Counted from the stretch's first letter, positions 585 to 5,642 are shown. The stretch is 6,447 bases of DNA from a virus (IMGVR_UViG_2690316121_000004:1-6447), one strand, 5' to 3'. Numbers and translations are program-made. The notes: generated from the sequence alone by a model not told the origin.

Positions 585-614
585 TGCCAAAAATAAAGGC
601 CGACTATGCGGCCT
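585..614 (-). terminator. Rho-independent terminator downstream of the 149-aa gene
   Basis: On the minus strand, a stem AGGCCG / CGGCCT (597..602 and 609..614) with a 6-nt loop is followed by TTTATTTTT. It begins 5 nt after the stop codon at 619..621. Confidence 0.6.
586..601. repeat. 16-bp direct repeat GCCAAAAATAAAGGCC, copy 1 (flanks the inserted gene)
   Basis: Exact 16-bp match to 1107..1122, read directly from the sequence. Confidence 0.9.
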
Positions 615-618
615 GAAA

Positions 619-1068
619 TTACTTAACCAATGATGCTGCATATTCGATAAGGTAAAGCTTTGGGGCCAGCCAAATTTTTAACCAAGTCATATTGGTTACT
701 ACAGCAATAATAAAACTTACCCACAGAACAAAAACTGCTGCTAATGGTAAGATTAGAAAACTAATCTCACCGTTACTTTCCCAAATCATAGTCGGTTTGT
801 ATTTAGGCTTTCCCTTCTCCCATGCCCATCCTTCATCATCGAACTTACCAATTTCAACTTTTTGGTACTGTTTCTTCATAAACCAGAAAACCAACGGGAT
901 TGTTAAAATGGCTATTAATGTTTTAATCAGACTGTCAACCATATTCCATAGCAGCAACTGATGAACAACATCAGGAATCTGTGCCTGGCTAAATGAGACA
1001 GCCGCGTCTATTCCATTACTGGCTTTTTGCAATAGTTCTACGAGAATCTTGTTTGCTTGTTCTTCCAT
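619..1068 (-). CDS. Hypothetical 149-aa membrane protein with two predicted transmembrane helices; accessory (moron) gene inserted between ea10 and ral
   Basis: Intact ORF with ATG at 1068 preceded by AAGGTGA. Two long hydrophobic segments (LIKTLIAILTIPLVFWFM and ISFLILPLAAVFVLWVSFIIAVV). Has its own terminator and is flanked by 16-bp direct repeats. Looks AT-rich by eye. No homolog recognised. Confidence 0.7.
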   Translation of the reverse strand: MEEQANKILVELLQKASNGIDAAVSFSQAQIPDVVHQLLLWNMVDSLIKTLIAILTIPLVFWFMKKQYQKVEIGKFDDEGWAWEKGKPKYKPTMIWESNGEISFLILPLAAVFVLWVSFIIAVVTNMTWLKIWLAPKLYLIEYAASLVK

Positions 1069-1106
1069 ATATCACCTTGATTGTAATAAGCATGAAATTA
1101 TTTACG

Positions 1107-1122
1107 GCCAAAAATAAAGGCC
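1107..1122. repeat. 16-bp direct repeat GCCAAAAATAAAGGCC, copy 2
   Basis: Exact match to 586..601. Lies between the ral stop and the start of the 149-aa gene. Confidence 0.9.
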
Positions 1123-1126
1123 ACCA

Positions 1127-1224
1127 TCAGGCAGCCTTGTTGTTCTGTTTACCAAATTCTCTGGCAATCATTGCCGTCGTTCGTATTGCCCACACCATTG
1201 ATTTTTATCAATGGTCGTAGTCAT
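1127..1224 (-). pseudogene. ral: ral (restriction alleviation) remnant with an internal out-of-frame deletion
   Basis: From the ATG at 1224 the minus strand reads MTTTIDKNQWCGQ, matching the lambda Ral N-terminus, then YERRQ and a stop at 1168..1170. A different frame reads WAIRTTAMIAREFGKQNNKAA with a stop at 1127..1129, matching the lambda Ral C-terminus. The roughly 30 central codons are missing. The junction sits at GTGGGCAAT (1185..1193). Confidence 0.6.
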
Positions 1225-1294
1225 ACGGATAGTCCTGGTATTGTTCCATCACATCCTGAGGATGCTCTTCGAACTCTTCAAATTCTTCTTCCAT
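1208..1294 (-). CDS. 28-aa hyperacidic peptide (MEEEFEEFEEHPQDVMEQYQDYPYDYDH), positional equivalent of lambda orf28
   Basis: ATG at 1294 preceded by GAGGTGAGAT. It overlaps the ral start by 17 nt, the same arrangement as orf28/ral in lambda. It is too short to appear in the supplied ORF track. Confidence 0.5.
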   Translation of the reverse strand: MEEEFEEFEEHPQDVMEQYQDYPYDYDH

Positions 1295-1352
1295 ATCTCA
1301 CCTCAAATAAGTGGTTTGCTGCCTAATTTCATTTTCTGGCGATCAACACAAG

Positions 1353-1736
1353 TCATCTTGCTGTCAGTTGTTTGGATTTCCGGTAGCCTGCCGCGTAAAG
1401 AGCTACATTTGGAAGACATACACCAGTTTCTGGTTGCTTATGTCCAAACTCATTCGCGTACACAATGGCCGCTCGCTCCAGATTGCGTCTGTATTCTTCC
1501 TGCTGCCAGATCACGTCCTGTGCCATGAACTTAATTGGCTTAGCGTCTTCTATGCGCTTAGGCGTTTCGTGAGTACCTTTAGCCTGAATCTGCGCTCTGC
1601 TTAGAGTAGGGCGGCGTAATACTTCTGAACTTATTGCTTCTTCGCAGGCCAGTACGCCGTTAGCTAATGCCTTTGCCTTTAAACGCTCACGACGACGAGA
1701 ACGTGAATTGCCTTTGAACTGAGTTCTGCGTGTCAT
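1353..1736 (-). CDS. N: N-family transcription antiterminator of the P22 gene 24 type (127 aa)
   Basis: Start ATG at 1736 with AGGAGG 6 nt upstream. Arginine-rich motif near the N-terminus (FKGNSRSRRRERLKAKA). C-terminus LPNVALYAAGYRKSKQLTAR closely resembles the P22 gp24 C-terminus. First gene downstream of pL and nutL. Confidence 0.8.
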   Translation of the reverse strand: MTRRTQFKGNSRSRRRERLKAKALANGVLACEEAISSEVLRRPTLSRAQIQAKGTHETPKRIEDAKPIKFMAQDVIWQQEEYRRNLERAAIVYANEFGHKQPETGVCLPNVALYAAGYRKSKQLTAR

Positions 1737-1865
1737 GTGGAACCTCCTGATGAACTTTGGCGGTGAATACAGCCGGGCGACTAACTCCGGTCGCGTAATC
1801 ATTGCAAAGCGCCTCCGCCGAGAAGGTTAGCTTCTGCATTCACCCCAAAGTTCACTTTGGTTATT

Positions 1866-1948: not shown

Positions 1949-1977
1949 AGTATCACCGCTAGTGGTATTTGTGTCAA
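1949..1977 (-). promoter_or_regulatory. pL promoter (-35 TTGACA at 1972..1977, -10 GATACT at 1949..1954, minus strand)
   Basis: Canonical lambda pL hexamers with 17-bp spacing, overlapping OL1 and OL2. Confidence 0.8.
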
Positions 1978-2192: not shown

Positions 2193-3191
2193 TTATGTTA
2201 TCTCTTTGACATAAAGTATTATCGCGGACTTTATTTCACCATCTAGTTCTTTTGCGTTGATTGACAAATGAACTGGTTTTCTATCCCACTCAGCTTGCTG
2301 AAGAGCTTTTTTATGCTCGGATGCGTCGAGAAAAACATCTTGTACTATGCACGATATTCTTAGATCGGAGTCAACATTTCTCACTTGCACTTTGAAGCTC
2401 TCTGGATCAGTGGAGTCAACCTTTTCAATGCGATAATTTCCATCAAGGCGGATCTCCATTGATTTCCGCCTTGCATTTGTAGTGAGGGTTTTGGATAGAT
2501 CTGCATCCAATACAACGCCATCAATCTGAGCTGTATCAGCCTTGACAAATGATTTAACTATGTCGGTTTTTGCGTCATGAGCAAGTCTTTCCATGTTGTC
2601 TAGCTTGGGTTTTTCGCTAATAATCTGAGTCAATAATTCACTTCGTTTTGTTTCCTGCTCAGACATGAAGCGCATGGTCGCAAGGTGTTCACGCTCAGAC
2701 TCGCTTTTTACTTCTGCCATGCGAATCTCTTTGCGGTCTTCTAGATATTTTTTGAATAGGACGACGCCGCCCCATATAAGAGCGACCCCTAAAACTGTAA
2801 TAACGATCTCTTGAGGGCCCACTTTACTCACCGCAGTTTGTATAACCTCACCCATGAACCCATCCATATTAACTTCTATCAAGGACGAGCCATTCTCAAC
2901 ATTCACCTGAATTTCGATAGCTTCCTTCTCTTCTTTTGAAAGCTTTCTTGGGTCAGGAACTCCGTACTTTAACAATGCATAAGCTCGGTTTATTTGGGCC
3001 TGCATTTCAACAAAACCCTTCATCACAGAAGGAGTCAAACTGCCATGAAATTTGTCACCAGTAAGACGGAAGGTTAAGTTAGGCCACCCTTCAAATGATA
3101 TTCCATCAGGAAGATCTTGCCCAGCGATGTACATCTCAACAAAACGCAAAGCATCTTCTTCGGAATGAATAACCGCCGTGCTGATTTCCAA
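2193..3191 (-). CDS. Hypothetical 332-aa single-pass membrane protein in the rexA-rexB slot; candidate phage exclusion / abortive-infection determinant
   Basis: Intact ORF directly downstream of cI on the same strand. The first in-frame start is TTG at 3191 with GAGG 7 nt upstream; the first ATG is at 3134 (residue 20) and has no Shine-Dalgarno. One strongly hydrophobic segment (IVITVLGVALIWGGVVLF, about residues 130-147) is followed by KKYLEDRKEIR and a long charged region. Not similar to RexA or RexB as I recall them. Confidence 0.8.
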   Translation of the reverse strand: MEISTAVIHSEEDALRFVEMYIAGQDLPDGISFEGWPNLTFRLTGDKFHGSLTPSVMKGFVEMQAQINRAYALLKYGVPDPRKLSKEEKEAIEIQVNVENGSSLIEVNMDGFMGEVIQTAVSKVGPQEIVITVLGVALIWGGVVLFKKYLEDRKEIRMAEVKSESEREHLATMRFMSEQETKRSELLTQIISEKPKLDNMERLAHDAKTDIVKSFVKADTAQIDGVVLDADLSKTLTTNARRKSMEIRLDGNYRIEKVDSTDPESFKVQVRNVDSDLRISCIVQDVFLDASEHKKALQQAEWDRKPVHLSINAKELDGEIKSAIILYVKEIT

Positions 3192-4743: not shown

Positions 4744-5642
4744 ATGACAAATACAGCAAAAATACTCAACTTCGGCAGAGGTAACTTTGCCGGACAGGAG
4801 CGTAATGTGGCAGATCTCGATGATGGTTACGCCAGACTATCAAATATGCTGCTTGAGGCTTATTCAGGCGCAGATCTGACCAAGCGACAGTTTAAAGTGC
4901 TGCTTGCCATTCTGCGTAAAACCTATGGGTGGAATAAACCAATGGACAGAATCACCGATTCTCAACTTAGTGAGATTACAAAGTTACCTGTCAAACGGTG
5001 CAATGAAGCCAAGTTAGAACTCGTCAGAATGAATATTATCAAGCAGCAAGGCGGCATGTTTGGACCAAATAAAAACATCTCAGAATGGTGTATCCCTCAA
5101 AACGAGGGAAAATCCCCTAAAACGAGGGATAAAACATCCCTCAAATTGGGGGATTGCTATCCCTCAAAACAGGGGGACACAAAAGACACTATTACAAAAG
5201 AAAAAAGAAAAGATTATTCGTCCGAGAATTCTGGCGAATCCTCTGACCAGCCAGAAAACGATCTTTCTGTGGTTAAACCGGATGCTGCAATTCAGAGCGG
5301 CAGCAAGTGGGGGACAGCAGAAGACCTGACCGCCGCAGAGTGGATGTTTGACATGGTGAAGACCATCCGCCATCAGCCAGAAAACCGAATTTTGCTGGGT
5401 GGGCTAACGATATCCGCCTGATGCGTGAACGTGACGGACGTAACCACCGAGACATGTGTGTACTGTTCCGCTGGGCATGCCAGGACAACTTCTGGTCCGG
5501 TAACGTGCTGAGTCCGGCCAAACTCCGCGACAAGTGGACCCAGCTCGAAATCAACCGAAACAAGCAACAGGCTGGCGTGACAGCCGGCAAACCAAAACTC
5601 GACCTGACGAACACTGACTGGATTTACGGGGTGGAGCTATGA
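4744..5642 (+). pseudogene. O: O replication initiator, frameshifted (N-terminal 225 codons in one frame, C-terminal 73 codons in another)
   Basis: The ORF 4744..5421 matches the lambda O N-terminal domain; the ORF ending at 5642 matches the lambda O C-terminus and overlaps the P start (ATGA) as in lambda. The span is 899 nt, not a multiple of 3. The frames switch at about 5364..5372 (ATCCGCCATCAGCC here; lambda has ATCGCACCATCAGCC as recalled). Confidence 0.85.
5092..5216. other. ori-lambda: four iterons (about 5092..5111, 5112..5131, 5134..5156, 5159..5178) plus an AT-rich unwinding region (5179..5216)
   Basis: Four repeats of ATCCCTCAAAACGAGGGA-like sequence, followed by CACAAAAGACACTATTACAAAAGAAAAAAGAAAAGATTATTCG, inside the O coding region. 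Confidence 0.9.

Follow-up and report, generated by a model that had tools for sequence, protein, structure and literature searches.

Two kinds of described phage element bear on the locus considered here: the morons, or mosaic gene modules, of lambdoid phages (Juhala et al. 2000; Cumby et al. 2012, PMC3594210), and SieA of phage P22, an inner-membrane superinfection-exclusion protein which is expressed by the prophage from its own promoter (PMC10883804). The locus lies in a stretch of viral DNA of 6,447 nucleotides (IMGVR_UViG_2690316121_000004:1-6447), called the window throughout this text, which comprises the early-left and immunity region of a lambda-like prophage. It is composed of the open reading frame (ORF) at 619-1068 on the minus strand, which we call gene X, and of the DNA on either side of it, between ea10 and a remnant of ral; the gene X product has 149 amino acids (aa) and two predicted transmembrane (TM) segments. 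Another small membrane protein, Imm of phage T4, is made early in infection and is about half the size of the gene X product.

The extra DNA that separates ea10 from ral is very probably a self-contained module, composed of a ribosome-binding site (RBS), an ORF of 149 codons and an intrinsic terminator, and a movable accessory gene, anatomy and origin being judged jointly. Gene X is a new member of a catalogued and uncharacterised protein family, phrog_3054. As a feature of the genome the locus is nothing unusual, a case of lambdoid mosaicism at a conserved module boundary; its value lies in the protein family, which is large, occurs in beta- and gammaproteobacterial phages, is under selection and has conserved ends around a variable TM hairpin.

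Gene X and its junctions

When compared with lambda, the window aligns in two parts, 1-607 with lambda 33481-34087 and 1098-1192 with lambda 34059-34152, and the interval between ea10 and ral measures 702 bp against 182 bp in lambda, in agreement with the long interval noticed in a preliminary description of this DNA. The extra DNA amounts to 521 bases, one copy of the repeat discussed below being counted. As that description had also proposed, it holds a single real gene, equipped with an RBS and a terminator of its own: the 149-aa ORF is preceded by a Shine-Dalgarno (SD) sequence, AAGGTGA, read from the sequence at 1072-1078 on the minus strand, and is followed by an intrinsic-terminator hairpin, AGGCCGCATAGTCGGCCT then TTATTTTTGG, which the terminator scan places at 597-614 (running from 614 to 597 on the minus strand) and which folds at -10.1 kcal/mol. 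The stretch from the SD to the ATG, AGGTGATATATGGAA, is kept across differing upstream contexts. The ORF has 37.8% GC, compared with 44.6% in the window and 38.2% in the adjacent ea10, which gene order places at 56-424 on the minus strand.

The gene is not a core component at this position, since of the 2,267 E. coli genomes with a match to the 400-1330 stretch, flanking ea10 and ral included, only 52 have it there. A single junction gives no direction between an insertion here and a deletion in lambda, yet the presence of the gene in so few of the matching genomes may bear on it. Among complete E. coli genomes gene X is found in 270 of 5,426 (about 5%), always annotated as 'hypothetical'.

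The gene at the right edge of the extra DNA had been called ral. This holds for the locus, which aligns to lambda ral (1127-1224, minus strand), and fails for the gene, of which only a remnant is left, with a 103-bp internal deletion, lying between short repeats (TGGGCAAT-like), and a frameshift after codon 13; ral is here a pseudogene, and the PGAP/RefSeq annotation at the remnant consists of just a 57-bp, 18-codon ORF. In O55:H7 CB9615 the equivalent ral gene is annotated as frameshifted. Among the listed E. coli prophages with gene X at this position the majority have the same deletion, as do eight IMG/VR loci, and ral is intact in others, for example in O157:H7 strain 611 and enterotoxigenic E. 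coli (ETEC) H10407.

A 16-mer, GCCAAAAATAAAGGCC, is present exactly at both edges of the extra DNA (586-601 and 1107-1122), as was reported in the preliminary description, where it was taken for a recombination or insertion scar. It is specific to the junctions and not a genome-wide motif: in the window it occurs nowhere else, even allowing two mismatches, none of 200 shuffles gave two matches, and the whole prophage of about 50 kb in the nearest genome has two occurrences. Lambda, to which the same description had pointed for comparison, has a single copy, at 34067, where 5 nt separate it from the ral stop. The interpretation as an insertion scar has nevertheless to be abandoned, because each copy is the 3' stem arm and U-tract of a terminator, beside the conserved boundary sequence bsq4 annotated in Sf6. 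Seen on the coding strand, the 16-mer is GGCCTTTATTTTTGGC, in which the 3' arm of a GC-rich hairpin is followed by a U-tract. The copy at 586-601 (minus strand) belongs to the gene X terminator, and the copy at 1107-1122 (minus strand), which by alignment is the counterpart of the lambda 34067 copy, belongs to a terminator-like hairpin after ral (1117-1138, minus strand; AAGGCTGCCTGATGGTGGCCTT then TATTTTTGGC), which folds at -16.2 kcal/mol with z = -2.6. The corresponding hairpin after ral is weak in lambda, as judged by folding. The similarity between the two repeats runs imperfectly past the 16 bases.

The same pair of flanks surrounds the homologous gene in Gally, Stx2_EH2086, Sf6 and O157:H7 strain 611, where the upstream copy usually matches at 15 of the 16 positions. 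In Sf6, gene 34 has ral (gene 35) on one side and, on the other, a region that carries the annotations boundary sequence bsq4 and tL2A; in the window the conserved boundary region corresponding to bsq4 (about 452-564) contains a tL2a-like hairpin ahead of ea10, found by the terminator scan at 450-471 on the minus strand. We surveyed 80 related IMG/VR loci, which carry close homologues of gene X. The downstream 16-mer tail travels with the gene in 70 of them, and the upstream copy is found in 27, namely those whose upstream neighbour is ral or else has a 3' end like that of ral. Both ral and gene X would end in the same terminator tail, followed by the same conserved DNA, and a phage with the two genes in tandem would carry the tail twice; the 16-mer is probably duplicated for this reason.

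It is extremely unlikely that the repeats are the target-site duplication of a transposable element or of an integrating cassette. Exact direct repeats of 16 bp, 521 bp apart and unique in the prophage, speak for such an origin, but the 16-mer already occurs once in lambda, in the 3' flank of ral, each of the two copies functions as one half of a terminator hairpin, and the repeat is conserved between phages, with 53 of the 80 loci having the gene with a single copy and only two having identical copies on both sides. Moreover no terminal inverted repeats of the insert were found and the ORF listing of the window contains no transposase, and a transposon origin was rejected. The module would rather have been placed by recombination in the short end sequences that are common to lambdoid gene modules. 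An additional short repeat, TGAAATTAyTTA, was noticed near both junctions by eye only and was set aside as probably due to chance in AT-rich DNA. A second repeat relates the start region of gene X (1057-1077) to that of orf28 (1283-1303), the two being 90% identical, and both proteins begin with MEE.

The placement of the gene is variable. Its upstream neighbour is the N antiterminator gene, with a 9-nt gap, in 45 of the 80 close loci, the stop codon of N being inside the SD of gene X, and ea10 is the downstream neighbour in just 22; elsewhere the gene is found after ral or, in phage-plasmids, between the lysis genes and terminase. The upstream junctions fall in three classes. In class (a) a leader between the tail of the ral terminator and the SD (1079-1106 in the window, minus strand) is conserved, and the promoter scan finds no consensus promoter in it. 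The junction between N and gene X, ...CCACTTATTTGAGGTGATATATGGAA, matches the junction ahead of orf28 in this window, and in other phages gene X occupies the place that orf28 has here, right behind the 3' end of N. Gene X is also carried by non-mobilisable phage-plasmids of 46-48 kb, namely pEC21Z144-46K (L247, 5001-5450) and about 20 others; in them the lysis genes, together with DUF4406, lie on one side of the gene and the small terminase subunit on the other, and the flanks are unrelated. Mosaicism is also internal to the gene, since Sf6, SPN9CC, HK633, CUS-3 and N7 have in common only its two ends, 5' and 3', where the DNA is 93-95% identical, and the stretch in the middle, which encodes TM1, loop and TM2, is divergent or shortened; HK633 is annotated with a 58-aa fragment only.

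The phrog_3054 family and its predicted topology

The gene X product matches phrog_3054, which is listed as of 'unknown function', with an E-value of 1.5e-61, residues 1-149 aligning to positions 1-137 of the 137 of the profile, and all of 53 diverse family members match it too. The family includes the Sf6 gene 34 protein (AAQ12224.1), a 'TM helix-containing protein' of HF4s, GALLYPH_30 of Gally and WP_053896177.1, and 515 close homologues are, every one, named 'hypothetical'. When 1.84 billion representative proteins were searched with a profile, 2,476 matched at E <= 0.001, of which 1,135 at E <= 1e-10; the size of the family, counted in clusters at 50% identity, is at least 2,476. It spans phages of beta- and gammaproteobacteria, the hosts of the prophages including Enterobacterales, Pseudomonas, Thalassotalea and several Alcaligenaceae, and some members are carried on larger phage contigs, for example one of 88 kb (L090).

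Scans of the gene X product with Pfam, NCBIfam and PADLOC gave no match, and the Pfam scan of the 53 members gave only scattered chance matches, each in a single member. A profile search of the PDB sequences returned nothing at E <= 10. In the literature on Sf6 gene 34, phrog_3054, the accessions of members and lambdoid early membrane proteins, we found no paper on the family.

The two hydrophobic segments around a charged loop, which had been seen in the preliminary description, are confirmed at about residues 45-63 and 102-125, and exactly two TM segments are predicted in 131 of 140 members. The conserved N-terminal part is composed of about 44 residues (consensus ...GIDAAVxFSQAQIPDVVxQLLxW) and the conserved C-terminal part of 24 residues (WLKIWxAPKLYLIEYAASLxK, with the motif APKLYLxEYA); between them lies the variable TM1-loop-TM2 middle, whose loop is 9-58 aa long. 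In family alignments conservation is 0.63 at the N-terminus and 0.76 at the C-terminus, against 0.24-0.33 in the middle. The ratio of nonsynonymous to synonymous substitution rates (dN/dS), calculated from 59 distinct coding sequences, is 0.11 for the N-terminus, 0.15 for TM1, 0.28 for the loop, 0.96 for TM2 and 0.06 for the C-terminus. Gene X is therefore a real protein gene under purifying selection, which is strongest at both ends, and TM2 is near neutral.

The basic residues that flank the TM segments are unevenly distributed. In the 12 residues on each flank there are on average 3.95 lysines and arginines towards the loop and 1.57 towards the termini, and in 117 of 131 members the loop side has more of them. 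According to the positive-inside rule, the protein is therefore predicted to be a two-pass inner-membrane protein with a cytoplasmic loop and both conserved ends in the periplasm. Two AlphaFold2 models, based on 34 and 140 aligned sequences, are all-helical, with pLDDT of 65 and 64 respectively, and in the first of them the TM segments are the helices with the highest pLDDT. Foldseek comparison of the models with BFVD and PDB gave nothing at E <= 0.001.

Expression and possible functions

The only promoter-like site found on the strand of gene X, when 400-2200 was scanned, is the pL-like promoter at 1949-1977 (minus strand, TTGACA-17-GATACT), and none was found between 1069 and pL by this simple consensus scan, which weak or non-sigma-70 promoters could escape. 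Gene X is thus probably expressed from pL only and, with no other promoter found, it would be silent in the repressed prophage. In an infected or induced cell its synthesis would follow the passage of N-modified polymerase through the hairpin after ral; where gene X directly follows N, which is the commoner arrangement, the gene would be inside the first early transcript. A weak promoter in the tail of the ral terminator (TTGGCC-17-TATTAC, or a TACAAT -10 without a -35) was considered by eye, was found unconvincing and was not reported by the scan.

We propose that the gene X product acts early, on the periplasmic side of the inner membrane, as a dispensable competition factor; it would shield the infected or induced cell by hindering the entry of DNA from other phages, following a logic like that of T4 Imm or P22 SieA, and would not be a system of the SieB type. 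The genomic company is consistent with this proposal: ral and gam are present here, abc also belongs to the variable early-left region, in P22 gene 17, which overcomes Fels-2 exclusion, lies downstream of ral (past orf78 and orf87), and Gad2 and Acb3 domains are found near distant homologues. A block of DNA entry of the Imm or SieA type, suggested by analogy, is a tentative prediction of function; the explanation as a whole, from anatomy, origin and expression to product and function, is the best that we can offer and falls somewhat short of an even chance.

Several points weigh against the proposal. phrog_3054 is not tied by homology to any function, and to our knowledge exclusion expressed solely in lytic growth is not established for lambdoid phages. 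Nothing in the loop points to an arms race against a target that varies, as no diversifying selection was detected there at a dN/dS of 0.28. The predicted topology has the positive-inside rule as its single ground, the AlphaFold models are of low confidence (pLDDT 64-65), and the promoter scan is a simple consensus scan. Early timing may in any case be inessential, because the gene also works from a place in the late region in phage-plasmids.

A doubtful but possible alternative is that the protein does not act on incoming phages and is instead a counter-defence or host-takeover factor, which neutralises a membrane-located defence of the host or of a prophage, or stabilises the membrane during takeover. 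Its targets would be abortive-infection effectors or sensors, for example RexB-like, Kiwa- or Zorya-like, and transmembrane-effector systems. The neighbourhood cited above, with ral, gam and abc in the same variable region and the anti-exclusion gene 17 of P22, can be read in this sense too; moreover, distant homologues lie within a few genes of the anti-defence domains Gad2 (on the 88-kb contig L090) and Acb3 (L093), and expression as, mostly, the first gene after N in relatives would give a suitable timing. This is however guilt by association, since the neighbourhoods are extremely diverse: clustering of neighbours over 43 diverse contexts gave no conserved partner gene, and N-type antiterminators were the sole recurrent neighbours. 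Furthermore we know of few membrane-embedded anti-defence proteins, and conserved ends, if periplasmic, would fit cytoplasmic targets less well. More remote is a role in modulating an inner-membrane complex of the host, such as FtsH/HflKC or division proteins, to set the choice between lysis and lysogeny or the physiology of the cell, as cIII and Kil do. The gene shares an operon with cIII and kil, it encodes a predicted membrane protein with conserved amphipathic helices, and one distant homologue adjoins a Band_7/SPFH protein; but cIII and kil are themselves present here, the SPFH neighbour was seen once, and the family is also found on the 88-kb contig and in late regions. It is also quite improbable that the protein is a holin, an antiholin or a factor in lysis timing. 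The small size, the two TM segments and the nearness of lysozyme and Rz genes in phage-plasmids and in L092 would suit it, whereas neither gene X nor the 53 members match a holin family in Pfam, the C-terminal tail is amphipathic and not highly charged (three basic and one acidic among 24 residues), the prophage has its own class II holin, endolysin and spanin genes, and the very early expression expected right after N would be lethal for a holin.

In the preliminary description gene X was suggested to be a relocated or alternative sieB, and a wider form of this idea is a superinfection-exclusion gene that the prophage expresses and that makes up for the lack of sieB, or else a lysogenic-conversion moron that brings a promoter of its own. 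The slot of sieB is indeed empty, with 58 nt between orf28 and the N stop, and sieB is absent from this prophage; the product is a small predicted membrane protein, its gene has its own terminator and lies between genes that are neighbours in lambda, and the place after the lysis genes in phage-plasmids is typical of morons. The relation to sieB itself did not survive, as no sequence or profile similarity to SieB was found, gene X is on the pL strand, and the two genes coexist: gene X, sieB and an intact ral occur together in ETEC H10407, and gene X and sieB in SPN9CC and in nine of the 80 close loci. The wider form is unlikely as well, since no promoter-like site separates ral from gene X, and in the 45 loci where the N stop overlaps the SD there is no room for one.

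The proposal of an early competition factor at the inner membrane is our preferred one for function. The family is often encoded first after the N antiterminator gene and has no Pfam entry, structure or reported phenotype; if the proposal is true, it would represent a new exclusion or anti-defence function. We consider it possible, as a tentative view, that phrog_3054 is an undescribed and very widespread family of phage inner-membrane proteins with a new mechanism of phage-phage exclusion or counter-defence, acting through periplasmic conserved ends and produced in the first early transcript with N.

The surrounding prophage and comparison with described systems

From 400 to 1330 the window is 100% identical to E. 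coli Z1323HEC0477 (NZ_CP148323.1), where the prophage adjoins mdtA and extends from int through the tail genes to the nleA effector gene. This type III effector gene lies just past the tail-fibre genes (L246, 1518-2759), outside the window. The minus strand of the window has, in this order, the pL-like promoter, N, orf28, the ral remnant with its 18-codon ORF, gene X and ea10, and rightward of pL are cI, cro, cII, O and P; gam, cIII and kil also belong to this prophage. The orf28 homologue is at 1208-1294 (minus strand). Compared with the nearest RefSeq genome the window has otherwise 34 substitutions, none of which is in the gene X region, and an Rfam scan of the window gave no match.

Some other features of the window deserve mention. 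The N-type antiterminator gene (1353-1802, minus strand) is of an unusual type, with an N_peptide domain (Pfam) and a C-terminus like that of P22 gp24, and RefSeq annotates just its last 23 codons, as a partial gene. Directly downstream, in another frame (1303-1360, minus strand), a remnant of an N C-terminus of the phage-21 type (...KMKLGSKPLI*) is fused to the start of orf28, a fusion that marks a mosaic joint. Immediately downstream of cI, in the slot of rexA/rexB, there is a 332-aa ORF at 2193-3191 (minus strand), behind which stands a strong terminator (2185-2168). Its product has a hydrophobic segment in the middle, and neither Pfam nor PADLOC gives a convincing match, the sole Pfam match being aRib at 17.9 bits, under the cut-off of that family. 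The position would suit a gene for exclusion or defence that is expressed by the prophage. The O gene (4744-5642, plus strand) lacks one base near about 5368 with respect to the nearest RefSeq genome (ACCATCGCGCC -> ACCATCCGCC), which splits it into ORFs of 225 and 73 aa; this reflects either a defective prophage or a sequencing error.

Among the described systems, SieB of lambda and P22 resembles gene X in its genome neighbourhood, between N and ral. It differs in that sieB is on the strand opposite to N in lambda, P22 and SPN9CC, that sieB of P22 has its own annotated promoter, and that alignment of the family with lambda SieB by hhalign gives a probability of 0.2%. The same comparison with P22 gp17 gives at most 0.2%. 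With T4 Imm the likeness is in the logic of a small early membrane protein, and the difference is that no Pfam family matched gene X or the 53 members.

Gene X also has likenesses to a moron. As in morons, there is extra DNA between genes that are adjacent in lambda, with its own terminator (the hairpin at 614-597 and its T-run), a patchy distribution and junctions in short conserved sequences, the last of which is shared with the boundary sequences of Sf6. The differences are that the consensus scan found no promoter of its own for gene X, that its GC content, lower than that of the window as a whole, is no different from that of ea10, and that the gene is usually in the transcription unit of N. 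Sf6 gene 34, in turn, is a full-length homologue within phrog_3054 in the same place downstream of ral and with the same junction sequences, and it differs at the DNA level, where just the 5' and 3' ends are shared at the high identity reported above.

P22 SieA shares with the gene X product its size (149 aa against 162-164), the absence of a signal peptide and, on the predicted topology, the character of a phage-encoded polytopic inner-membrane protein. It has three TM segments where two are predicted for gene X, which moreover is in the pL operon, and hhalign gives a probability of 0.1% between the family and SieA, that is, no sequence relationship. SieA is thus the closest functional analogue in the literature, a plausible one for the mode of action and not a relative.

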